A DNA stretch of 64,000 nucleotides from Candidatus Calditenuaceae archaeon HR02 (GTDB lineage Archaea; Thermoproteota; Nitrososphaeria_A; Caldarchaeales; Calditenuaceae). Within the stretch, counting starts at the first letter, position 1, and each line of letters begins with the position of its first letter. Shown piece by piece: positions 7,006-53,559 of this stretch. Under the pieces are notes generated by a model. The model was not told where the DNA came from, did no database searches, and saw only the letters and a list, made by a program, of their open reading frames with translations. The stretch lies in assembly GCA_002898395.1 (NCBI GenBank), contig BEHE01000003.1:32001-96000 (forward strand), given 5' to 3'. Both the position numbers and the translations under genes were made by a program.

Positions 7006-7410
7006 ATGACGCAGTGGCACACGGACTCTCATAAGCGTAAAAGGAGCGGCGGCAAGAAGGGGGTACATCGGAAGAAGAGGAGGTATGAGAGGGGAAGAGA
7101 CATGATATTCTGCACTATTGGGGAGCCAGAGAGGATAAGCATCAGGACTCGAGGTGGCGGAATTAAACAGATACTGAAATCCGATAGGCTTGCTAACGTC
7201 TACGACCCCACTAGCAGGAGAATTATCAGAACAGAGATACTTGGTGTGAGATCCAACCCGGCGAACAGTGATTTTGAGAGGAGGGGTGTGATAACGAGGG
7301 GAGCGATAATAGAGACCAAGCTTGGAGATGCCAGAGTTACATCAAAACCGGGCTCTGATGGTGTGATAAACGCTGTTTTGATAAAGACTGTCTCAACCAG
7401 TCCAGCATGA
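7006..7410 (+). CDS. rps8e: 30S ribosomal protein S8e
   Basis: HKRKRSGG...KKRRYERGR...RTRGG...ARVTSKPGSDGVINAVLI. Confidence 0.97.
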   Translation: MTQWHTDSHKRKRSGGKKGVHRKKRRYERGRDMIFCTIGEPERISIRTRGGGIKQILKSDRLANVYDPTSRRIIRTEILGVRSNPANSDFERRGVITRGAIIETKLGDARVTSKPGSDGVINAVLIKTVSTSPA

Positions 7411-28045: not shown

Positions 28046-29539
28046 GTGTGCGCGAAGTATTCTCTGGGCTCTGAGTTTAAGTTTGGCTTTTCAACTGTAG
28101 GCGTGCAGCATGAGATGGGTGTCCCGGGCTCTGAGTTCAGCTCCGACTGGGTTGCCTGGCTTCATGACCCGGAGAACATACTAGCTGGGATTGTGAGCGG
28201 CGACGCTCCCGAGGATGGGCCTGGATACTGGAGGCTTTTCAGAGAGGACCATGAAAGAGCGCGGAGCATCGGAATGGATGCGGCTTGGATAACGGTCGAG
28301 TGGGCGAGGATATTCCCAAGGCCGACCTTTGATGTGAAGGTACCTATGGAGAAGGCTGGCAGAGTCATTACCCGGGCCTTAGTTGAGAGGAAGCATTTAG
28401 AGGATCTTGAGAGGATAGCCGACATGCAAGCGCTCAACCACTACAGGGAGATACTCTCTGACTGGAGGAGCAGGGGCGGCCTCGTAATCGCAAATCTCTT
28501 CCACTGGTCCCTACCACTCTGGCTCCACGACCCTATCAAGGTGAGGAAGCTTGGGCCTGACCGGGCGCCATCCGGCTGGATTGATGAGAGGTGCGTCACA
28601 GAGTTCGCCAAGCTCTCAGCATTTCTAGCCCACCACCTAGATGACGTGGTTGACATGTGGTATACGATGAACGAGCCACTTGTCATCGCCAACGCGGGCT
28701 ATCTCCAAGTAAACTCTGGATTCCCACCCGGTTATCTCGACCTAGAGACCTTTATGACTGTCATCAAAAATCTCGAGATGGCGCATGCAGTCGCCTACGA
28801 CGCTGTAAAGAGCTATTCTAAGAAGCCTGTCGGCGTGGTGGAGTCGGTGGCCCACTGAACCCCCTTAACAACCGAAGACCAGGCCGCGGCAGATAGGGGC
28901 TTCGAATTTAACATCGCGATATATGATGCGGCTGTGAGGGGGCTTGTAGGTGGAGAGGTTGTTGACGAGGCTCGAAATAGGATTGACTGGATTGGTCTCA
29001 ACTACTATTCCAGAATGGTTGTTAAGGCTGAGAGTAGGTCGCCCACAGGGTTTAGGATTGTTAGCGGCTATGGCTATGGCTGCCAGCCTAGAGCATACTC
29101 GCTCGATGGGAGGCCAACAAGTGATTTCGGTTGGGAGGTTTACCCAGAGGGTCTCTACCACGTGGCTAAAAGGCTCTACGGCCGCTATCGATTACCAATC
29201 TACGTGACTGAGAATGGGTGTGCGGACTCTGAAGACCGTCTAAGACCAAGGTTCATTGTCTCACACCTTTACCAGATATACCTCGCCAAGAGAGAGGGTG
29301 TGGATTTGCGGGGATACTTTCACTGGAATCTTACCGACAACCTGGAGTGGGCGAAGGGGTATAGCATGAGGTTTGGGCTATTTGAGGTTGACATGTCTTC
29401 TAAGAAAAGATTCGCTAGGCCTAGCGCTTTGGTCTTCAGGGAAATAGCCACCTCCAAGGCGATACCTGAAGAGTTTGAGAACATCACTCATCCCCCGTCG
29501 AGAAGAAATAGATGCCCCGTTCACACAGATATTTGTTAG
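28046..29539 (+). pseudogene. GH1 beta-glycosidase interrupted by an in-frame TGA at 28856-28858
   Basis: The NEP acid/base motif lies before the stop and TENG...WNLTDNLEWAKG after it, in the same frame (...VAH*TPLT...). Confidence 0.88.
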
Positions 29540-43870: not shown

Positions 43871-46282
43871 TTAACCTACGCTACCACTCATCTCAAGCTC
43901 TATGAGCCTGTTAAACTCTATCGCATACTCCATAGGGAGCGTTTTTGTGAAACTCTCCAAGAATCCGAGCACTATCATATTTAGGGCGTCCTGCTCAGGA
44001 ATTCCCCTGCTCATCAAATAGAAGATCTGGTCCTCACCTATCTTGCCCACAGTGGCCTCGTGCGTAACTGTAGCATCGTCCTCGTGGATCTCGTTGTAGG
44101 GGTAAGTATCTGTTCTGGACCTGTCATCGAGTATGAGTGCATCACATCTAACACTCGACTTCACACGCTTAGCTCCCTTCGCGACGTGAAGCAAGCCCCT
44201 ATAAGATGTCCTGCCCCCATCCTTGCAGACAGACTTAGAGGTTATCCGGCTGGTGGTATCCGGTGCGAGGTGGATTGCCTTGGCACCCGTGTCTTGGTGC
44301 TGGCCTCTGCCCGCAAAGGCTACCGAGAGGATTTCAGCCCGAGCCCCGCGGCCCAGTAGATAGACGCTCGGATACTTCATCGTAACCTTGCTGTTGTGGA
44401 CTATCATTCCTTGTGCTATGAAGTTGGCCGTTCCTTCAACCTCTATATCATATGTTTTCTTTTCACCCGCTGGTTCTATCTTAATAACAGGAACGAAGTA
44501 TACCTCTGTATCTGGTATTTGATCGCTGAAGTATAGGAAGTAGTGGGTATAAGTTTTCTTCCTCCTACCTAATGGCTTTTTCTCCTTTCTCTGCCATTTA
44601 CTTATTTTAAGCGGGTTAAGACCACACGTGATGGCAAGCAGCTTGGTGTCCTCTAGCAATTTCTTATTAACGCTACATACGCTGAGGTTTTTATGCCCCG
44701 ACCTCACATAACCATCTGCTGCTATGTAGCCTTGTATTAATGCGAGCTTCTGTGAACGAGGTAGTTTAAAGACCCATTTCGGTATCCTCTTTTCTCTAGC
44801 TTTTTTGGCTAGGCCTAGTGATGTTAAGAACATGGCTAAGTTTTTAGAATTAACTCTTAAGACGTTTCCCTGTCGCTTAGCATCTACCCCGAATATCTCA
44901 CTAAGTAATGTTTTAACACGCTTAGCCGCTGGATCATTCTCCGCAACCGCAAAGCATACACGACCCTCACCGTCTAGATATCCATCACCTAAGTAGAATC
45001 CGATTAACCACATAAGGTCGTCTGTTGTTTCAGGGGGCCATTTTATTGGCTTAGCATTTACGCTTGGTTTAAAGGTAATTTTATACGGCTTGCCTTTATC
45101 TGGAATCATGCCCACCACGCCCACTAAATCTCCTGGCTTAATATCCCTGAGCATTCTCCAGTGTAATTTAAAGAACCTGCCTTCTTTGGACAATGTCAGG
45201 AATGGGTGGTTATCAGTTGCAACGATCTCTCTGTAATTTGCTGTGGTTAGCTTATAAACGGGGCGGGGCGGATTAGACTTCTTCCCAACAACCCTTGAAG
45301 TCCTTATCCGGAGGTCGGGCCCTACAGTATAGACTAAATCACCAACCTCCACATCCCTAATCTTCTTGACATCATTATTGGTGAAGACGGCAGTTTCAGG
45401 AACCAAGCACCCTATGTTAGCGTCAACCCACTCGACAACGGCGTCCTCATACGCGAAGGCCCTCTTTGTCACGAGGTTGTAAACATCTGTGCTCCAGTTC
45501 TGGAGAGTCGTATACCTCACATAGGCCCCCTTCATTGCAATAATCTCCACAACAGCCGAGTGTAGGCTCTCTGAACTGTAGATGGGTGCGGTGCAACCTT
45601 CTATATAATGGACTTTGCTTCCTGGCTCGGCTATTATCAGCGTCCTCTCAAATTGGCCGACATTCGCGGCATTAATCCTGAAGTATGCTTGGAGTGGAAA
45701 CTCTACATGTACACCCTCAGGTACATAGACGAAACTGCCGCCGCTCCAGACCGCCGTGTTTAGGGCCGCGAACTTGTTGTCGTTTGGTGGAACGACCGTC
45801 CCAAAATACCGTTTAACAATAGAGGGATATTCTCGAAGCGCTGTATCCATGTCGCAGAAGATGACACCCTGCTTCTCAAGCTCTTTCCTAACATTGTGGT
45901 AAACGACCTCTGAGTCATACTGAGCCCCCACGCCTGCGAGGAACTTTCTCTCCGCCTCGGGAATTCCCAGCCTGTCAAACGTCCTCTTTATGTATTCGGG
46001 AACCTCCTCCCAGCTCCTAAACTTCCTGTCAGTCGGGCTGACGTAGTATCTTATCTTGCCGAAGTCTAGGCTACTAAGGTCCGCCCCCCACGTAGGCATA
46101 CCCCTCTCTACGAAGTATCTGTATGCCTTGAGTCGGAGCTGAGTCATCCACTCAGGCTCATCCTTAATCCTGGAAATCTCTTCGACAACCCTCTCCGAGA
46201 TTCCGGGCTGGAAAATATACTTGTATTCTACCTCGTCTCTGAAATTATATTTACTGTAGTCGAAGCTTATCTCTGTTGTCAT
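43871..46282 (-). CDS. sufB: Fe-S cluster assembly protein SufB with intein
   Basis: GQFERTLI, EGCTAP, LHSAVVE and KVTMKYPS; 339-aa insertion. Confidence 0.96.
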   Translation of the reverse strand: MTTEISFDYSKYNFRDEVEYKYIFQPGISERVVEEISRIKDEPEWMTQLRLKAYRYFVERGMPTWGADLSSLDFGKIRYYVSPTDRKFRSWEEVPEYIKRTFDRLGIPEAERKFLAGVGAQYDSEVVYHNVRKELEKQGVIFCDMDTALREYPSIVKRYFGTVVPPNDNKFAALNTAVWSGGSFVYVPEGVHVEFPLQAYFRINAANVGQFERTLIIAEPGSKVHYIEGCTAPIYSSESLHSAVVEIIAMKGAYVRYTTLQNWSTDVYNLVTKRAFAYEDAVVEWVDANIGCLVPETAVFTNNDVKKIRDVEVGDLVYTVGPDLRIRTSRVVGKKSNPPRPVYKLTTANYREIVATDNHPFLTLSKEGRFFKLHWRMLRDIKPGDLVGVVGMIPDKGKPYKITFKPSVNAKPIKWPPETTDDLMWLIGFYLGDGYLDGEGRVCFAVAENDPAAKRVKTLLSEIFGVDAKRQGNVLRVNSKNLAMFLTSLGLAKKAREKRIPKWVFKLPRSQKLALIQGYIAADGYVRSGHKNLSVCSVNKKLLEDTKLLAITCGLNPLKISKWQRKEKKPLGRRKKTYTHYFLYFSDQIPDTEVYFVPVIKIEPAGEKKTYDIEVEGTANFIAQGMIVHNSKVTMKYPSVYLLGRGARAEILSVAFAGRGQHQDTGAKAIHLAPDTTSRITSKSVCKDGGRTSYRGLLHVAKGAKRVKSSVRCDALILDDRSRTDTYPYNEIHEDDATVTHEATVGKIGEDQIFYLMSRGIPEQDALNMIVLGFLESFTKTLPMEYAIEFNRLIELEMSGSVG
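44393..45409 (-). mobile_element. Intein with LAGLIDADG homing endonuclease in sufB
   Basis: Junctions NIG|CLVP...ATDNHPF...IVHN|SKV; endonuclease motifs LIGFYLGDG and LIQGYIAADG; more AT-rich than its flanks. Confidence 0.95.
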
Positions 46283-46427
46283 TAGGCTCGGTATAACAGT
46301 GTTATTCCGCTATATAAGTTAATGGTGACAACAACCGGGCGGCTAACAGCCAAAATATTTACAACATATATACACACAAGCCGTTAATACGACACATTTA
46401 AATCAGCAAGAACCCAAACATCGACTG

Positions 46428-46922
46428 GTGATAGGAATGCTAGCAGTAGAGCAGGAAAAGGGGCTAAAAACTGCAAGTAGCAGGAAGATTCTGGTATATG
46501 TTGACGGGAATGGAAAGGATGTTAAGGCGTTGGAGGCCGCTGCTAAAATGGCTATAGAAGAGGGTGCAGAGCTTGTCGTTATGACGGTTTTGAAGAAGGT
46601 TAATAGAGTTCCTTACGAATTTATAAAGTTCGTCAACTCGGAGAGGTTTACCGACCCCCCACACTACCTCTACTATCAGTACTTAGGTAGAGCGGTTCTC
46701 GAACCATATGTAGAGATGTTGAGGACCATGGGTGTACCCTACGAGCTCCAGATAGAGTTCGGAGACAAGAAGGAGAGGATCGAGGCTGTCGCTAAAACCA
46801 TAAAGCCGTATAAGGTTGTCATGTCGGTGAATGGCGGGATACGCAGACAGTTCTTTGGTCTCCCGCTCTTTAGGGCTGAGGAAGGCCTAAGACTCGATTG
46901 CCCCATAACGCTGATACCGTAG
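46428..46922 (+). CDS. Universal stress protein (UspA)-like
   Basis: KILVYVDG..KALEAAAKMA..GAELVVMTV...CPITLIP. Confidence 0.75.
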   Translation: MIGMLAVEQEKGLKTASSRKILVYVDGNGKDVKALEAAAKMAIEEGAELVVMTVLKKVNRVPYEFIKFVNSERFTDPPHYLYYQYLGRAVLEPYVEMLRTMGVPYELQIEFGDKKERIEAVAKTIKPYKVVMSVNGGIRRQFFGLPLFRAEEGLRLDCPITLIP

Positions 46923-46969
46923 AAAGAGAATAATCACCCGCTACTACAGGCCTCAATGCGTGTCTTAAT

Positions 46970-47308
46970 TTATGGGGTTTTTATTTTAAATTCTTTCCCC
47001 TCACAGTCCACGACCCCCTGCACGCGTCTGATGAATGAGACGCAGTTGTAGCACATGAGGAATGGGATGGTCTGGCTAGCCACAGGGCACTCTACATACT
47101 CCTTCTTCATCTTCGCTATCATCTTATTGCTCAGGGATTTCCTCAGGCTCTCTATAATCTTTTGATCTACCTTGAGCGCCTTCTGAGATGTCTTAACCTC
47201 TACTCGATATTGCGGAGACCTCAAATCCTGTTGGCGCAATTGCTGAGCCTCGTTATAAATCATCCGCCATCGGTCTAATCCCTGATACACTGTGTAAGGC
47301 TCAGCCAA
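46970..47308 (-). CDS. Hypothetical protein with a C-terminal four-Cys motif
   Basis: VECPV...LMCYNC..FIRRVQGVVDCEG. Confidence 0.7.
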   Translation of the reverse strand: MAEPYTVYQGLDRWRMIYNEAQQLRQQDLRSPQYRVEVKTSQKALKVDQKIIESLRKSLSNKMIAKMKKEYVECPVASQTIPFLMCYNCVSFIRRVQGVVDCEGKEFKIKTP

Positions 47309-47388
47309 ACAGGTATGCGCGGCTCAACCGTTGATGGAGCGGTTTGGACCATGTGGATTCGTTAATGTTTATATATTGACCAATAGAC

Positions 47389-47517
47389 ATGTTCAGGCAC
47401 AGGCGAAGGGTGGTAGTTATTGCTTGGAGCCGTGAACTAGCTCCGCACATCCTACGTGTCACCGACCCTATTGAAAAATCTGCTCCGTCCCTTCGCATCC
47501 TCCTTCTTCTCTGGTGA
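47389..47517 (+). promoter_or_regulatory. Putative leader-peptide ORF (42 aa) / attenuator of the leuA-ilv operon
   Basis: My translation: MFRHRRRVVVIAWSRELAPHILRVTDPIEKSAPSLRILLLLW*. The stop overlaps the GGTGAGG SD-like site 9 nt before the leuA ATG. Confidence 0.6.
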
Positions 47518-47526
47518 GGGTGGACT

Positions 47527-49062
47527 ATGAGCTGGAGAAGTTTCTTGGAGGGGATATATGTTCTTCCAAGTCGTGTACTCTTCTTCGATACTACGCTGAG
47601 GGATGGTGAGCAGACCCCTGGGGTCGCGCTACGCGTAGAGGAGAAGATGATGATCGCTGAGGCGCTGTCTGATTTGGGGGTTGATGTGATAGAGGCGGGG
47701 TTCGCCGTTGTCTCGAAGGGGGAGTATGAGTCTGTCAAAAGGATATGTAGCTTGGGGCTGAGCTCCAAGATCTGCTCCCTGAGCAGGTGCGAGACGAGGG
47801 ATGTTGACGCTGCTGTTGACGCGGGTTGCGACTGGGTCCACCTATTTATCGCGACCTCCGAACTCCACATGAAGTATAAGCTGAACATGACGAGGGAGCA
47901 GGTAGTTGAGAGGGCAGTTAAGATGGTTGAATATGCGAAGAGTCGGGGTGTTGTAGTCCACTTCTCGGCGGAGGATGCGACAAGAAGCGATCCCGAATTT
48001 CTGATGGAAGTTTACCGGCGCGTAAGGGACGCGGGGGCTGACAGTTTAGATATTCCTGACACGGTCGGTGTTGCTGTTCCACACGTGATGAGGTCGCTTG
48101 CTAGTAGGGCAAAGTGTGAGACCGGCCTACCTATCGCCGTCCACTGCCACGATGATATGGGGCTAGCTACGGCTAATACCTTGGCTGGCGTTGAGGGTGG
48201 GGCAGAGATAGTGCATGTTACCGTGAATGGGATTGGCGAGAGGGCTGGAAACACGAGTCTGGAGGAGGTGGCTGTCGCCCTCAAGTTCCTCTATGGCGTC
48301 GAGACTGGGATAAGATATGAGAATATTGCGAGGGTCTCGAGGCTGGTTGCCCGGCTGACTGGAATCCCGATCCCTAAAAACAAAGCCGTCGTCGGGGAAC
48401 ACGCCTTCTCCCACGAGAGTGGAATCCATGTACATGGGGTGATCAATAATCCTGCCACATATGAGCCCATTATGCCTGAGCAGGTGGGGATGAGTAGGCG
48501 GATTATCATTGGCAAGCACTCGGGAGCACACTCGGTCAACACGATTCTGAGGCAGTATGGATTCGTCTTAGAGACTGATGAGGTCAGGGCTGTTCTGGAG
48601 AGGGTTAAGAATGTTGCCGACTCAGGGCATAAAATAAGTGATCAAGAGTTGCTACAGATCGTTAACGAGGTTATAGGTTTAAAGGCCGCTAGGCCGGTGA
48701 CTTTAAGGGGTTTCCAACAGATTACGACAGAGCATGGCGATAGGTGTGTAGCTGAGTTTGAAGTTAACGGGGAGACGCTTCTCGTTGAGGGTGTTGGTGA
48801 TACGCCGCTTAAGTCGGCGATAGATGCCTCGATGAGGGCGTTTACCAACATTTTAGGAGATATTAAGATTGTCGACTACTCTGTATTTGCATCACCATAC
48901 GAGGATAGACACCCCTACGAAGCCGAGGTAATTATAAGGGTTAATGGAAACACCATCGTCGGGAGGGGGATAGGCAAGACGAGTGGCCACACAATACTAA
49001 ACGCCGTATCTAACGCCGTTAATCAGTATCTGCTAACCCAGTCACGGGGGGTTGGGAGATGA
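47527..49062 (+). CDS. leuA: 2-isopropylmalate synthase (LeuA/CimA family)
   Basis: DTTLRDGEQTPG, EDATR, HCHDDMG, GERAGN and HESGIH; C-terminal regulatory domain. Confidence 0.88.
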   Translation: MSWRSFLEGIYVLPSRVLFFDTTLRDGEQTPGVALRVEEKMMIAEALSDLGVDVIEAGFAVVSKGEYESVKRICSLGLSSKICSLSRCETRDVDAAVDAGCDWVHLFIATSELHMKYKLNMTREQVVERAVKMVEYAKSRGVVVHFSAEDATRSDPEFLMEVYRRVRDAGADSLDIPDTVGVAVPHVMRSLASRAKCETGLPIAVHCHDDMGLATANTLAGVEGGAEIVHVTVNGIGERAGNTSLEEVAVALKFLYGVETGIRYENIARVSRLVARLTGIPIPKNKAVVGEHAFSHESGIHVHGVINNPATYEPIMPEQVGMSRRIIIGKHSGAHSVNTILRQYGFVLETDEVRAVLERVKNVADSGHKISDQELLQIVNEVIGLKAARPVTLRGFQQITTEHGDRCVAEFEVNGETLLVEGVGDTPLKSAIDASMRAFTNILGDIKIVDYSVFASPYEDRHPYEAEVIIRVNGNTIVGRGIGKTSGHTILNAVSNAVNQYLLTQSRGVGR

Positions 49063-50792
49063 AGGCGAGCGACGCCCTAGTCAAGAAGATGGAAGAGCTG
49101 GGTGTTGAGATAGTCTTCGGTATTCCAGGGGGCGCTAACCTACCACTATACGACTCTCTACATGACTCTGAAATCAGGAGTGTGCTTGTGAAGCATGAGC
49201 AGCAAGCCGCCCATGCCGCTGAGGGGTATGCCCGGGTCAAAAAAAGGCCGGGGATAGCCCTGGCCACTTCTGGCCCAGGGGCTACAAACTTGATAACAGG
49301 AATCGTAAACGCCTCGATGGATAGTGCGCCCCTAGTAGCCATCACAGGCCAAGTGGTAAGATCCTTCATGGGTACGGACGCCTTCCAGGAGGCAGACATA
49401 GTTGGCATGATACTCCCCCACGTAAAGTACGCCTCCGTTGTTTTCGAGTCGTCAAAGCTAGTGAAAGAATTTGTAAATGCTTATCGGTGCGCCATAAGTG
49501 GGCGACCTGGGCCAACTCTGATAGATATTCCCAGGGATGTTCAACAAGAGGATGTAGGGGATTACGAGCAGCTTGACGACGATGTCGAGGAGAGATTCAT
49601 CAAACCCGCCCCACAGCCCGATGATGGCCAGTTTAGGAGGGCTGCTGAGCTGCTGGCTGATGCCCAGCGCGTTTGCATACTACTAGGTGGTGGAGCGTAC
49701 TTTAGTGATGCGACAAGGGAGGCTCTAAGACTTTCTGAGCTTCTCAACGCCGCTGTGATCGCCACTACACCAGGGAAAACCGCCCTCGTCGAAGACCATC
49801 CAAATGTCCTCGGGGTGGTTGGAATGCATGGCCGCTTCGAATCAAATCTGGCCGTGATCGAGGCCGACGTCATATTATGTGTTGGTACTAGGCTCTCCGA
49901 CAGGGCTATCGGCCCGCCCACAGAGTTCAGGAAGGGCAGAAAAATCATCCACATCGACATAGACGGCAGCGAGATTGGAAAGAATGTTGTCCCAGACGTA
50001 GGAATTGTCTGCGACGCCAAAGTAGCCCTCATGAAAATACTGGAAAACCTCTCAGCGCTGGATATCAAGCCTAAGGATCCGGGATGGGTCTTGGGCCTTA
50101 AGGAGATTGGGCGCAGTTTTGACGACTACATGTTTAACCAAGCTGATGGTAGTAGGCTATCGTCTTGGAAGGTTGTCAAGACTATTAGAGATGAGCTGCC
50201 GAAGAATGCTATAGTGACTACGGGGGTGGGGCAGCATCAGATGTGGTCTCAACTCTTCTTCAAGGTTTTAGAGCCCGGAACCTTCATCACGAGCGCGGGC
50301 CTGGGTACAATGGGCTTCGGTCTTCCAGCAGCTATGGGCGCTAAGGCTGCCGCCCCAGATAAAATCGTGCTCAACATGGATGGGGACGGTAGCTTCTTAA
50401 TGACTTGTCAGACCCTCGGTACCATCGTTGAATACGACCTCCCAGTAATCACGGTGATCTTTGACAACCGCTCGCTAGGCATGGTGAGGCAGTGGCAAGA
50501 CCTATTCTACAAGAAGAGGTTCAAGGATGTTGACATCGAAGATAGAACAAACTTGGTCAAGCTCTCTGAGGCCTTCGGGGTTGAAGGGATATTTGTTGAG
50601 AGCTATGAAGAGTTGAGGACCGCCCTTAGGAGGGCTATCAGAAATAATGAGGCTCTCGTCATAGACGTGCCTATAGACAAGGACGAGAAAGTGTTCCCAA
50701 TGGTGCCGCCTGGAAAGTGGCTTGCGGATGTCATTCTCCCACCGGGGTTCAGCTCATATGTCGAGGAGAAGACTACTAGTCCGGCTAAGTAA
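49059..50792 (+). CDS. ilvB: Acetolactate synthase large subunit
   Basis: FGIPGGA, KHEQ, TSGPGATN, GVGQHQMW, GDGSF and GMVRQWQ. Confidence 0.96.
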   Translation: MKASDALVKKMEELGVEIVFGIPGGANLPLYDSLHDSEIRSVLVKHEQQAAHAAEGYARVKKRPGIALATSGPGATNLITGIVNASMDSAPLVAITGQVVRSFMGTDAFQEADIVGMILPHVKYASVVFESSKLVKEFVNAYRCAISGRPGPTLIDIPRDVQQEDVGDYEQLDDDVEERFIKPAPQPDDGQFRRAAELLADAQRVCILLGGGAYFSDATREALRLSELLNAAVIATTPGKTALVEDHPNVLGVVGMHGRFESNLAVIEADVILCVGTRLSDRAIGPPTEFRKGRKIIHIDIDGSEIGKNVVPDVGIVCDAKVALMKILENLSALDIKPKDPGWVLGLKEIGRSFDDYMFNQADGSRLSSWKVVKTIRDELPKNAIVTTGVGQHQMWSQLFFKVLEPGTFITSAGLGTMGFGLPAAMGAKAAAPDKIVLNMDGDGSFLMTCQTLGTIVEYDLPVITVIFDNRSLGMVRQWQDLFYKKRFKDVDIEDRTNLVKLSEAFGVEGIFVESYEELRTALRRAIRNNEALVIDVPIDKDEKVFPMVPPGKWLADVILPPGFSSYVEEKTTSPAK

Positions 50793-50988
50793 CTCATACG
50801 AGGCTGTCCTGAAGCTTTTACTCTTCGCGAAGCAGGGGAGGATATCGTTAAGGGAATTGCATCTAAAGTCCGATGATGACGAAATATCTGCCGAGATGGT
50901 TGTCGAGGCGCCGCCCGAGAAGGTTGACTGGTTCGTGAAAAAAGCCAGCGGCTCGCCCATAGTCATAGAGTGTAGGAGTCTCGAGTAG
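50758..50988 (+). CDS. ACT-like small protein (AHAS regulatory-subunit-like)
   Basis: About 76 aa with a beta-alpha-beta-beta-alpha-beta pattern, between ilvB and ilvC; ATG 50758. Confidence 0.6.
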   Translation: MSRRRLLVRLSNSYEAVLKLLLFAKQGRISLRELHLKSDDDEISAEMVVEAPPEKVDWFVKKASGSPIVIECRSLE

Positions 50989-50996
50989 CAAGTGGC

Positions 50997-51269
50997 ATGT
51001 CTGCGGGGCTCATAGTCAGGCTCTTGTTCAAAGGGTTAAGAAATGCGCTCACCGCAGTCCGACTTGTTAGCGAATTGGAGGGTTTAGAGGTTAGAGCTAT
51101 ATACATCGGACGGGAAAGTGTTGAAGAAATGTATGAGGTGGTATTAGAATTGTCAGCAAACTCTGTGGTGGTTAACGACTTCTTAAGAAACGTGTCGGCG
51201 AGCAGTGGCTTCATAGAGGCTTGCGTGGAGGACTTGGACGCCCGTGCCGTCTGGGAGGGGATTAGGTGA
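50997..51269 (+). CDS. Second ACT-like small protein
   Basis: 90 aa with an ACT-like pattern (IVRLLF..NALTAVRLVSELEGLEVRAIYI), inside the ilv operon. Confidence 0.6.
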   Translation: MSAGLIVRLLFKGLRNALTAVRLVSELEGLEVRAIYIGRESVEEMYEVVLELSANSVVVNDFLRNVSASSGFIEACVEDLDARAVWEGIR

Positions 51270-51275
51270 GGAATC

Positions 51276-52256
51276 TTGGCTAGGGTCTATTACGACTCTG
51301 ATGCCTCTCTCACCCCCCTCCAGGGGAAACGGGTAGCGGTGATCGGCTATGGCAGCCAGGGTAGGGCTCAAGCCCTAAACATCAGGGACTCCGGGATAGA
51401 GACTGTTATCGGCCTGAGGGGCGAGGGTAAGTCCTATGAAGCGGCGGTCAAAGACGGCTTCACACCATTACCGATAGAAGAGGCCGTCAGGATATCTGAT
51501 GTGATCTTGATGCTTATCCCCGACGTGCCCATGCCTGAGACCTATAAGATGTATATCGAAAACAGCCTGACACCTGGCAAGACGCTAGTCTTCGCCCACG
51601 GCTACAACATACATTATAAGAGAATCGTTCCACCCCCCTATGTGAACGTAGTACTCGTGGCTCCTAAGGGCCCCGGCCCACTCGTGAGGCAGAAATACCT
51701 TGAGGGGCGAGGCGTCCCCAGCCTTATAGCAGTCCACCAAAACCCAACTGGAAACGCGAAGGAGGTCGCCCTCGCGATAGCCAAGGCAATCGGCGCCACT
51801 AGGGCAGGCGTCATAGAGACGACATTCCAAGAGGAGACTGAGACAGACCTTCTCGGAGAGCAGGCTGTTCTGGTTGGCGGGGTCATGGAGCTTATCAAGA
51901 AGGGATTTGAGGTGCTGGTCGAGAATGGATACCAGCCTGAACTCGCCTATTATGAAGTCTGCAACGAGCTGAAACTGATAGTTGACCTGATATACTCGGG
52001 GGGTCTAATGCACATGCTTCGCTCCGTCTCCGACACGGCTAAGTTCGGAGGCCTGACGATCGGCCCCCAGATAATTGACGAGTCTGTGAAACAGAAGATG
52101 CAGGAGGCGTTGAGAAGGATAAAGTCGGGCGAGTTCGAGAAGCTTTGGACAGGAAACCCTGACGCATACAAGATCCTAGATAAGATGATGGAGAAGACGG
52201 AGCAGCACCCGCTTGAAGTTGTGGGAAAACGCCTCAGAGAAATGGCACTAATATAG
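51276..52256 (+). CDS. ilvC: Ketol-acid reductoisomerase
   Basis: GYGSQG, FAHG, APKGPG, ETETDLLGEQ and SDTAKFG. Confidence 0.97.
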   Translation: MARVYYDSDASLTPLQGKRVAVIGYGSQGRAQALNIRDSGIETVIGLRGEGKSYEAAVKDGFTPLPIEEAVRISDVILMLIPDVPMPETYKMYIENSLTPGKTLVFAHGYNIHYKRIVPPPYVNVVLVAPKGPGPLVRQKYLEGRGVPSLIAVHQNPTGNAKEVALAIAKAIGATRAGVIETTFQEETETDLLGEQAVLVGGVMELIKKGFEVLVENGYQPELAYYEVCNELKLIVDLIYSGGLMHMLRSVSDTAKFGGLTIGPQIIDESVKQKMQEALRRIKSGEFEKLWTGNPDAYKILDKMMEKTEQHPLEVVGKRLREMALI

Positions 52257-52393: not shown

Positions 52394-52813
52394 CTAGGCC
52401 TCAAATTCCTGGAACAGCTTCTTGACAAATTCGTATGCCTCCCTAGCCATTTTAAAGGCCTCCTCCGCTTCGGCTCTACTGAAAAGAAGGTCTGCCGGGG
52501 TCATCGAAATCTCATCACCGTACATCGCCGGCTCTCGTTTCTCTGACAGCTTCCTAGAGATTAATGCTAAACTATCAACTGGAAACCATTTCGGGAATCT
52601 GTCTTTAAACTTGATCAACACCGGGCCTACATCGTGTTTCTTTGGATACTCTATTCCCAGAAGTCGTAGGGCTGCCTTCAATCCCAATTCGACAGACTCT
52701 TGCGAGCTTCGAATTGAGTAGGCTAGGCTTCCTCCCCTTAGCTCTCTTTCAGCAGTTTCTAGCCTTCTGGTTGACTGGTTGAGAAGAGATTTTGCGGCCT
52801 CGATATTTCTCAT
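52394..52813 (-). CDS. HEPN domain protein
   Basis: SQESVELGLKA, YPKKHDV and REPAMY; ATG 52813 overlaps the MNT stop (ATGA). Confidence 0.88.
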   Translation of the reverse strand: MRNIEAAKSLLNQSTRRLETAERELRGGSLAYSIRSSQESVELGLKAALRLLGIEYPKKHDVGPVLIKFKDRFPKWFPVDSLALISRKLSEKREPAMYGDEISMTPADLLFSRAEAEEAFKMAREAYEFVKKLFQEFEA

Positions 52814-53559
52814 ATCTCTATCACTTCCCCAATCTTTGCGTCTGGTTTCAGTAGCCAGGCCCACTCATCCCCTGTTAGCCATATTCTCTTTGCCCCCAGC
52901 TCTCTCATTCTAGCTCGCATTTTTTCCGCCTCTCTCTCGTATGTTCCGTCGTCGACTAAGGTTATGCCCTCCTCCACTATGTCGAGGATAATAGGCGGAT
53001 GGTTTTGGAGGCTATGGGTATTTATCGGATGAAATGATATATGGGTCGATATTCCATTGTTCTCTAACCACTCTAACTCTCGGGCAACTCTGGGGGAGTA
53101 TTCCACATCTACTAGTCTATCGATAGCTTCTCCAAGCGATTTGAATGTGTCTGAAACTATCAGGAGATCTACGTCGCTGTCTAATTTTGCGCTGCCTCTG
53201 GCTACGGAGCCGAAGAGCACGATGCTCTTTAAACCAATGTTCTCTCTCAAGGCCTCCGTGCAGAAAATTCCGACTAACCTAGAGTATCTCTGCTGTGGTA
53301 TGTTTTCGAGATTTTTTATTACTTTGCCTACGCTTAGTAGATATGTATCTGGTTCTGCAAGCCTATAGAGCCACTTTTTGGGTCTCTTTTCATGGACATA
53401 TATCGCTCCCGCCTTTCTCATTCTTAGCAGCGCCACTCTTCCCGCAGCTTCACTCCCTAACATTTCTGTGATATCGTTTGAAGTGAACGTGTTTGGTCCG
53501 AATCTTCTGTAGAGCTCTGCGTATAATGCCCCGAGCTTTCTTGAGAGCCACTCAGCCAT
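52810..53559 (-). CDS. Minimal nucleotidyltransferase (MNT) with an N-terminal wHTH-like domain
   Basis: LFGSVARG....SDVDLLIV; about 80-aa N-terminal helix-turn-helix/wing region. Confidence 0.88.
   Translation of the reverse strand: MAEWLSRKLGALYAELYRRFGPNTFTSNDITEMLGSEAAGRVALLRMRKAGAIYVHEKRPKKWLYRLAEPDTYLLSVGKVIKNLENIPQQRYSRLVGIFCTEALRENIGLKSIVLFGSVARGSAKLDSDVDLLIVSDTFKSLGEAIDRLVDVEYSPRVARELEWLENNGISTHISFHPINTHSLQNHPPIILDIVEEGITLVDDGTYEREAEKMRARMRELGAKRIWLTGDEWAWLLKPDAKIGEVIEI

Follow-up and report, generated by a model that had tools for sequence, protein, structure and literature searches.

A conserved reading frame ending in leucine codons upstream of leuA in Caldarchaeales, a candidate ribosome-mediated leucine sensor in archaea

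Background

The leuA-ilvB-ilvC operon of Candidatus Calditenuaceae archaeon HR02 lies in a 64,000-nucleotide (nt) stretch of contig BEHE01000003.1 (GenBank assembly GCA_002898395.1, positions 32,001 to 96,000 of the forward strand), which we analysed as a whole and refer to as the window; coordinates below count from its first letter. The operon's first gene, leuA, encodes a 2-isopropylmalate synthase of 511 amino acids (47527..49062, plus strand) that matches NF002085 at 548 bits (cut-off 517) and TIGR02090 at 518.6 bits (cut-off 484.75). NCBIfam confirms the order leuA-ilvB-(90-amino-acid ORF)-ilvC (ORF, open reading frame), with ilvB at 49059-50792 and ilvC at 51276-52256, both on the plus strand. 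Upstream of leuA, an earlier note made from the sequence of the window had proposed a leader-peptide attenuator that senses valine, isoleucine and leucine. Here we report that this element is real and conserved and that its class was roughly right; the start codon, the Val/Ile/Leu reading and the generality of its helices were wrong. A functional, conserved cis-element of some kind is almost certainly present. From sequence comparison we propose, with a probability of roughly 0.55, that it is a translated, leucine-sensing leader ORF controlling leuA-ilvB-ilvC.

Relatives were gathered by a genome scan with LeuA as the query, which returned 80 loci. Twenty-five of these (L001-L023, L025 and L043), all from metagenome-assembled genomes and with full-length LeuA at 50-94% identity, form the lineage set and together with the window give 26 leaders. 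Lineage was assigned by record title (Calditenuaceae, Caldarchaeales, Aigarchaeota, Terraquivivens, Geocrenenecus, or the unspecific Nitrososphaerota or Thermoproteota). The outgroup consists of 21 other archaeal leuA loci, from Bathyarchaeia, Nitrososphaerales and Sulfolobales, with one Desulfurococcaceae and one Thermoplasmata record; the remaining loci were bacterial. Among the 26 leaders, 20 (the window, L001-L015, L018, L022, L023 and L043) share a 5' motif described below, and six (L016, L017, L019, L020, L021 and L025) are of a second kind that we call Terraquivivens-type.

Results

Leucine codons and a stop precede the leuA Shine-Dalgarno sequence in all leaders

Immediately upstream of leuA, the window has leucine codons at 47491 (CTT), 47500 (CTC), 47503 (CTT), 47506 (CTT) and 47509 (CTC), with ATC at 47497 between them (47491..47511, plus strand). 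They are followed by a TGA stop (47515..47517) inside the Shine-Dalgarno (SD) region of leuA, GGTGAGGGTGG (47513..47523, plus strand), which we recognized from the SD usage of the window's genes. This arrangement recurs in 26/26 leaders, each of which has CTY codons (Y, C or T), none or one whole further codon, and then a stop (TGA, TAG or TAA) at or just before the leuA SD. The stop lies 9-12 nt before the ATG in 25 of them and 16 nt before it in L002.

Over the last eight codons of the 26 leaders, leucine accounts for 100 of 208, compared with 10.5% in the window's ORFs, and it occupies codon -3 in 23 leaders and codon -2 in 25. At these two codons the first and second positions are C and T in 23-26 of the 26, with C and T about equally common at the third. 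Other leucine codons (CTG, CTA, TTA and TTG) appear 15 times among the last eight, for the most part before the fixed CTY pair at -3 and -2, and preserve the leucine at the cost of interrupting the pyrimidine tract. Isoleucine (14/208) and valine (9/208) do not exceed the 6.8% and 8.5% that they make up in the proteome, which speaks against the earlier proposal that these amino acids are sensed as well.

Once the relatives are counted, the terminal leucine run is far beyond what chance would give. At least three leucines in the five codons before the stop were found in 21/26 lineage leaders and in 1/21 outgroup loci, and none of the 21 outgroup loci had four leucines in five codons within 260 nt upstream of leuA. 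The element, with its enrichment in leucine and not in isoleucine or valine, is therefore a feature of the lineage that is absent before leuA in these 21 other archaeal loci. The comparative check that the earlier note had put forward, namely a search of relatives for a conserved upstream ORF (uORF) with a codon run, was positive for the leucine run and stop in all 26 leaders.

Two other readings of the run were considered and dropped. Read-through from the uORF into leuA would be out of frame in most relatives, whose stop-to-start gaps are 10, 11 or 16 nt. The pyrimidine tract as an archaeal oligo-T terminator does not fit relatives such as L009, which has CTGCTCCTCCTC with few T.

A uORF that ends this close to a gene could also serve as a constitutive coupling device, delivering terminating ribosomes to the leuA start or keeping the region unfolded, with no sensing of leucine. 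The SD lies between stop and start, the stop falls within the roughly 12 nt expected for termination-reinitiation, and the 9-12 nt gap of 25/26 leaders matches the 10-11 bp at which leader genes upstream of structural genes are enriched in Actinobacteria, an enrichment ascribed to reinitiation in the part of the report drawn on here (Korolev et al. 2016, PMC4833913). The leader genes described in that part are bacterial and without amino-acid sensing, whereas those reported here place leucine codons before a leucine gene. Coupling gives no reason for leucine codons at -3 to -1 before a gene of leucine synthesis, nor for the lack of such a uORF in the 21 outgroup loci, and we consider it distinctly unlikely as the full explanation.

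The reading frame changes length in whole codons

In the window the leucine codons close a conserved reading frame of 32 codons from ATT to TGA (47419..47517, plus strand), encoding IAWSRELAPHILRVTDPIEKSAPSLRILLLLW. The frame that begins at this ATT is open in 20/20 leaders of the 5'-motif set and always ends at the SD-adjacent stop, 9-16 nt before leuA, in nine different lengths (25, 27, 28, 30, 31, 32, 33, 34 and 37 codons). The alternative frames behave differently: +1 closes after 5-9 codons in 20/20, and +2 after 4-25 codons in 19/20 (61 in L013).

Shuffles of the individual sequences stay open with probability 0.12-0.61, so a single open frame is unremarkable. Because openness is weak sequence by sequence, the signal resides in its repetition over lineages and in length changes that are all multiples of three. 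We estimate the chance of all these changes falling in frame at about (1/3)^8, a figure that takes the changes as independent when the lineages are not fully so. Nine length classes, all multiples of three and with middles that cannot be aligned, are not expected for a non-coding RNA, and on this comparison we regard the frame, like its leucine codons and the position of its stop, as conserved. Outside the leucine run the encoded peptide is not conserved, as expected for a leader peptide.

Promoter and predicted transcription start

An AT-rich promoter stretch at 47362..47377 (plus strand) contains the TATA 8-mer TTTATATA at 47368-75, preceded by purine-rich bases resembling a B recognition element. 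Its core at 47362-75 had been pointed out before, and like all of the complementary words quoted with it was found in place when checked base by base. The 8-mer aligns with TTTAAATA or GTATAAAT in relatives; synteny of the upstream region ends immediately before the TATA box, where conservation sets in. In the 17/20 leaders where a proximal box was found by pattern, 34-41 nt separate the start of the box from the GGTGG of the 5' motif. With the same pattern, L010 and L023 gave no box and L008 gave a distal one alone, at 65 nt.

In eight genes of the window that appear leaderless, the distance from the TATA 8-mer to the start codon is 23-29 nt (counted by eye). By this spacing, transcription of the leader is predicted to start at 47398..47401 (plus strand), which is also about where conservation begins in the deeper relatives. 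Leaderless-looking starts in the window, with a TATA-like 8-mer and no SD, are found for example at 7006, 16625, 46282, 46428, 27953 and 53559, while operon-internal genes use GGTG-type SDs, usually with GGTG 6-8 nt before the start.

The ORF on which the earlier note was built is present as described, running for 42 codons from ATG 47389 to TGA 47515-17 (MFRHRRRVVVIAWSRELAPHILRVTDPIEKSAPSLRILLLLW), in frame with the leuA ATG 138 nt further on at 47527, and with its stop inside GGTGAGGGTGG, 9 nt before that ATG. No match was returned by a Pfam search with the 42-residue peptide. Valine, isoleucine and leucine do make up 15 of the 42 codons, but this richness is not exceptional (binomial P = 0.10, against 25.8% for the three together in 68 window ORFs). 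The model built on this ORF is that of a leaderless or nearly leaderless 42-codon peptide with two runs of codons by which Val, Ile and Leu are sensed. In support of that reading, the ATG is in frame and kept in L001 and L004, with TTG in L007, and bases 47389-97 are conserved in these four leaders while the preceding 9 nt vary.

This ATG (47389..47391, plus strand) follows the TATA 8-mer by only 13 nt, as against 23-29 nt for the leaderless genes, and precedes the predicted transcription start by about 10 nt. L002, L003, L005, L006 and every deeper relative either lack it or have it in another frame. Its distance from the TATA box and its poor conservation indicate that it is probably upstream of the transcript; a transcription start downstream of 47389 was named in the earlier note as an observation that would count against its own model, and the TATA spacing predicts such a start. 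The first codon run, VVVI, is not conserved either, as relatives read GWGCI, VVPI or RGGNI at the same place, and its codons GTG GTA GTT ATT are the SD-like GGTGG, the spacer and ATT read as codons. Nor is the frame shared with leuA kept, the stop-to-start gaps in relatives being 9, 10, 11, 12 and 16 nt. With isoleucine and valine unenriched near the stop, a 42-codon sensor starting at ATG 47389 is highly improbable.

An invariant motif at the 5' end

The sequence GGTG[GA]-N4-6-ATTGCT is invariant in the 20 leaders and lies about 7-12 nt into the predicted transcript. It occurs once per locus, only at the leader, in 19 related loci; stray matches number two in clostridial loci and one inside a coding sequence of the window. 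In the window it comprises an SD-like GGTGG (47409..47413, plus strand), invariant in 20/20 leaders and part of a heptamer, AGGGTGG, that is the same as in leuA's own ribosome-binding site, and TATTGCT (47418..47424, plus strand), whose columns are invariant and whose ATT at 47419-21 opens the long frame. That ATT is the sole in-frame codon common to all 20 leaders. It follows GGTGG by 4-6 nt, a spacing that resembles that of the window's SD-led genes, and for these two reasons AUU is proposed as the start codon. The motif may instead be a DNA operator, bound by a repressor at +7 to +25, which would explain neither the reading frame nor the helix described below.

The six Terraquivivens-type leaders keep the leucine run, stop and SD, and have the 5' motif replaced by CGGTCGGTGAGCAAAGTGAGCCAACTCGA about 110 nt before leuA. 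In these an SD-led GTG opens an ORF of five codons, VSQLE, whose stop varies between TAA and TAG and which is shifted by +1 against the long frame.

A conserved helix and clade-specific pairings

As a whole, the leader of the window gave no folding signal against shuffles (minimum free energy -40.6 against a mean of -40.84, z = 0.06). On the eight closest leaders, RNAalifold predicted a helix, which we call P1, together with small hairpins, all with little covariation; P1 hardly varies among these eight. Its 5' strand, GCGAAGGG (47403..47410, plus strand), would pair with CCCTTCGC (47489..47496, plus strand) directly before the leucine run, as judged by RNAalifold, duplex tests and pair counts on a covariance-model alignment. 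In other clades the helix is replaced by AGCGGG:CCCGCU, GCCGGUGG:CCGCCGGC, GGGUGGU:ACCACCC or AUAGG:CCUAU.

A covariance model built from the eight closest leaders and run over 36 sources matched 17 leaders at an expect value (E) of up to 1, comprising the eight seeds and nine others, two of these partial. On its alignment 92.8% of P1 cells are paired and 6/8 pairs have changed on both sides, figures that overstate the case because the alignment was fitted to the structure. None of 500 shuffles reached the observed values, and sliding the partner strand gave 47-59% pairing. The duplex energy of P1 beats composition-matched shuffles (<=0.05) in 7/20 leaders, the L015 group not being among them. 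From these comparisons we consider P1 a conserved part of the leader. A small hairpin of GGAGC (47426-30) with GCTCC (47440-44), spanning 47426..47444 on the plus strand, is part of the minimum-free-energy fold but weak, with 80% of cells paired and 2/5 pairs changed on both sides.

Both the SD and leuA codons 3-5 are complementary to the leucine pyrimidine tract (47491-47511), whose pairing with the leuA start region had been proposed before. Such pairing is supported within the window's clade and does not extend to a general consensus, as RNAalifold found no consensus helix over the 26 sequences that would indicate covarying anti-SD pairing. Within the window's clade, CUUCUCUGGU (47506-15) can form a 10-bp helix with GCUGGAGAAG (47531-40) that places the SD and the AUG in a 15-nt loop (47506..47540, plus strand). 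Its free energy of -16.8 is equalled by 0.01 of shuffles, and it is part of the minimum-free-energy fold at both 37 and 70 °C. Pairing of CAUCCUC with GAGGGUG is also possible in the window, with a series of C-G, U.G and U-A over the window, L004/L001 and L007. In L011 and L013 there is a matching change on both sides, GCUCC:GGAGC versus GCCCC:GGGGC.

Pairing between the tract and leuA codons 2-8 is strong in the window's clade, L011 and L013. Over all 26 leaders, native partners showed no general excess over cross-species partners (-10.05 versus -9.72), and the complementarity is largely compositional because CUY codons are by their nature anti-SD-like. The LeuA N-terminus, M-[SA]-W-[RK] (ATG NNN TGG AGR/AAR), is kept in all the archaeal loci compared, even in Bathyarchaeia without the element. 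The tract's purine-rich partner is thus constrained at the protein level, a constraint that the leader may have exploited.

No terminator-like site of the hairpin-plus-U kind occurs in 47250-47650, in agreement with the earlier note, and translation is therefore the likelier level of control. To our knowledge, terminators of this kind do not act on archaeal RNA polymerase. Mutually exclusive antiterminator and terminator helices, as in a classical attenuator, were likewise not found in the leader, where P1 and the clade-specific pairings were the only structures found. A T-box was considered on account of GGGUGGUA, which we take to resemble a T-box sequence, and was dropped, as there was no Rfam match and the base after UGG varies among relatives. 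Scanned against Rfam 15 at E up to 10, the region 46000-49000 matched no known leader family, the Leu and Leu/Phe leaders included, no T-box and nothing related to leuA (4227 models, the inclusion of the leuA-Halobacteria motif among them being unconfirmed). Its sole match, SNORD123 at 47640-47706 inside leuA (22.1 bits, gathering threshold 45, E = 0.45), is taken as chance.

These structural data also bear on the view that the leader is an untranslated structured RNA whose 5' motif, P1 and pyrimidine tract bind a regulatory protein or other factor, the open frame being a by-product. The nucleotides of GGTGG and TATTGCT are more conserved than any encoded residue, P1 shows covariation, there is no conserved start codon, and in our reading TATTGCT sits in the loop of a hairpin with a variable stem in several relatives. 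For the actinobacterial LEU element, in which a leader ORF upstream of leuA carries a leucine run that pairs with the leuA SD as a base stem, a protein binder was also argued for in the part of the description used here (Seliverstov et al. 2005, PMC1262725). An untranslated RNA leaves unexplained why the distance from ATT to the stop is a multiple of three without in-frame stops in nine length classes, why the CTY codons are phased with variation at the third position, and why the spacer before the stop is a whole codon. The window leader moreover folds no better than its shuffles, and Rfam has no match for it at E up to 10. We therefore think this view rather unlikely, and favour translation of the leader.

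A ribosome footprint on the leucine run opens the leuA start in folding models

The earlier note had suggested folding the leader under a ribosome footprint, and we did so for the 20 leaders, masking the 27 nt around a ribosome with codon -4 in its P site and the leucine at -3 in its A site. At 37 °C this raised the mean probability that the leuA start region is unpaired from 0.35 to 0.44, and at 70 °C from 0.48 to 0.58, a mean gain in accessibility of 0.095; at 70 °C it went up in 13/20 leaders and down in two. Control footprints placed 27 or 48 nt further upstream changed it by only 0.00-0.03. The effect in these models is modest, and it agrees with the idea that a stalled ribosome occupies the pyrimidine tract together with the 3' strand of P1, thereby opening the leuA start.

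Other features of the window

A search for further uORFs with codon runs in the window and the 25 lineage loci gave nothing recurrent beyond leuA, with internal false starts dominating the output, and the window contains no second amino-acid biosynthesis operon. Between ilvB and ilvC (50793-51269, plus strand), a gap of 205 nt is followed by the 90-amino-acid ORF, at the position where ilvN would sit; neither Pfam nor NCBIfam gave a match to it, even at E = 1. Antisense to the leader and the leuA start lies an ORF of 195 amino acids (47301-47888, minus strand) that has no family match and is probably spurious. A divergent ORF of 112 amino acids (46970-47308, minus strand) also lacks a family match and is not syntenic in L001, L004 and L007.

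Further away, the SufB gene (803 amino acids, 43871-46282, minus strand) is interrupted by an intein, NCBIfam recognizing two SufB stretches together with N- and C-terminal intein splicing motifs. A family-1 glycoside hydrolase is split over two ORFs (28046-28858 and 28934-29539, plus strand) covering profile positions 95-219 and 284-451, and is possibly frameshifted or decayed. Directly after the ilv operon, a nucleotidyltransferase-domain protein (52810-53559, minus strand) has a weak MntA-antitoxin-like match (32.9 bits, cut-off 60).

Discussion

Based on these observations, we propose the following course of events for a leucine-sensing leader. Transcription would start near 47398-47401, and the SD-like GGUGG at 47409-13 would recruit a ribosome to a start at or next to UAUUGCU, either AUU 47419 or, alternatively, GUG 47410. 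The ribosome would then translate about 32 poorly conserved codons until it reached the CUY codons before the stop that lies on the leuA SD. When charged tRNA-Leu is scarce, it would stall on these codons and cover the pyrimidine tract, which could otherwise pair with its purine-rich partners, namely the leuA SD, leuA codons 3-5 and, further upstream, the 5' strand of P1. The start region of leuA would thus be left open. When leucine is plentiful, the ribosome would terminate and depart, and the leader would close again.

Several observations weigh against this model, most of them at the start of the frame. No canonical start codon is conserved: the candidate GTG (47410..47412, plus strand) is in frame in 12/20 leaders, while a spacer of 4 or 6 nt puts it out of frame in the remaining eight; neither ATG, GTG nor TTG occurs in frame in L008, L010, L022 or L023; and in L008 the frame is interrupted by a TGA three codons upstream of the ATT. 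Initiation at AUU in archaea was not found in the open literature searched. For none of the six Terraquivivens-type leaders could we assign a start, and while five of them join the frame of the 5' motif to that of the leucine run, L021 does not. The proposed AUU start is the weakest link of the model, and AUU, GUG or UUG may each be the codon used.

Other difficulties concern pairing, geometry and precedent. Between the final 24 nt of the uORF and the SD, anti-SD pairing does not exceed that of composition-matched shuffles, 0.557 of which do as well in the window (mean 0.45 over 20 leaders), and RNAalifold run on the leucine-run, SD and start region of the 26 sequences returned no pairs. A ribosome stalled at codons -3 to -1 would have its P site about 19-25 nt from the leuA AUG and might block initiation. 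The SD would lie at the leading edge of the stalled ribosome, and with so tight a geometry occlusion, or termination followed by reinitiation, is therefore a possible outcome. For the LEU element, mutating the leucine codons was without effect on regulation, and its authors for that reason doubted translation-based control, according to the part of the report considered here (PMC1262725).

The invariant 5' motif also admits a different ORF. Inside ATTGCT lies a canonical TTG in the +1 frame, and a mini-ORF of six codons (MLGAVN and a stop) runs from TTG 47420-22 to TAG 47438-40 on the plus strand, as found in the frame analysis. Its second codon is always CTY: TTG CT[TC] is invariant in 20/20 leaders with variation at the wobble base only, a pattern that fits a start codon followed by a leucine codon better than it fits ATT GCT and so counts against the long frame starting at ATT. 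In such a sensor a ribosome led by the SD to UUG 47420 would hold a CUY codon in its A site, and its occupancy of an ORF of 5-9 codons would control P1 and thereby the leuA start. The +1 frame does close after 5-9 codons in 20/20, and we read the VSQLE ORF of the Terraquivivens-type leaders as standing in the same +1 relation to the long frame. A mini-ORF leaves the conserved long frame, its terminal leucine run and the stop unexplained, and with a ribosome at the 5' site the pyrimidine tract would presumably become available for pairing with the leuA SD, which is the wrong sign for leucine shortage. We hold a mini-ORF sensor to be very unlikely.

The long leucine-sensing leader has parallels among known systems. 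Ribosome stalling on a leader peptide as a sensor of amino-acid supply is a textbook bacterial mechanism, and in the enterobacterial leu, ilvGMEDA and ilvBN attenuators the position of a ribosome on a leader ORF with tandem end-product codons selects between RNA structures. The archaeal leader likewise has tandem codons for the regulating amino acid. It differs in having no hairpin-plus-U terminator, which puts it outside the definition of a classical transcription attenuator. Its regulatory codons, moreover, come last in the ORF, where they overlie the ribosome-binding site of leuA, and leucine alone is enriched. In the translational attenuation of ermC and cat, a stalled leader ribosome unmasks a downstream start, with stalling caused by a drug and the nascent peptide and with well-defined hairpins. 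Exposure of a downstream start by a stalled ribosome is what we propose here too, whereas the proposed cue is tRNA supply and the pairing is compositional and clade-specific. The leuA-Halobacteria RNA motif, a structured RNA upstream of leuA reported for Halobacteria, is comparable in being a conserved element upstream of an archaeal leuA.

The closest likeness is to the actinobacterial LEU element, as far as it is described in the part of the report on which we rely (PMC1262725): both stand upstream of the same gene, leuA, with a uORF carrying a leucine run, a tract complementary to the SD, a compact leader with a base stem, and no terminator. The two belong to different domains of life and share no sequence similarity. 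P1 joins the SD-like 5' motif to the segment before the leucine run, whereas the LEU stem joins the run itself to the SD. In the archaeal leaders the frame and codon phase are also kept over many insertions and deletions, which argues for translation. By analogy, the archaeal element is probably the counterpart, in outline, of the LEU element.

We found no description of an archaeal leader peptide for leucine or another amino acid in the open literature, to which the search was confined. Ribosome profiling has revealed uORFs in the archaea Haloferax and Methanosarcina, to which no signal is assigned in the parts of these reports drawn on here (PMC10117724, PMC11456600). Tentatively, and at somewhat less than even odds, we suggest that the leader described here is the first ribosome-mediated amino-acid sensor of archaea, present across Caldarchaeales/Aigarchaeota, acting on translation, starting at AUU, and using its CUY run both as sensor and as anti-SD mask.

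Conclusions

The recurrent small ORF and 5' untranslated region described here are unannotated, in a lineage with many leaderless-looking genes, and deserve a place in its annotation. The element, at about 130 nt, is short enough to be transplanted and tested in a tractable thermophilic archaeon or in vitro, and initiation at AUU or another unrecognized start in archaea is a second point that can be tested with it. If the leucine-sensing leader is confirmed, it would mean that the logic of attenuation exists in archaea, rebuilt to act on translation initiation instead of on hairpin terminators.

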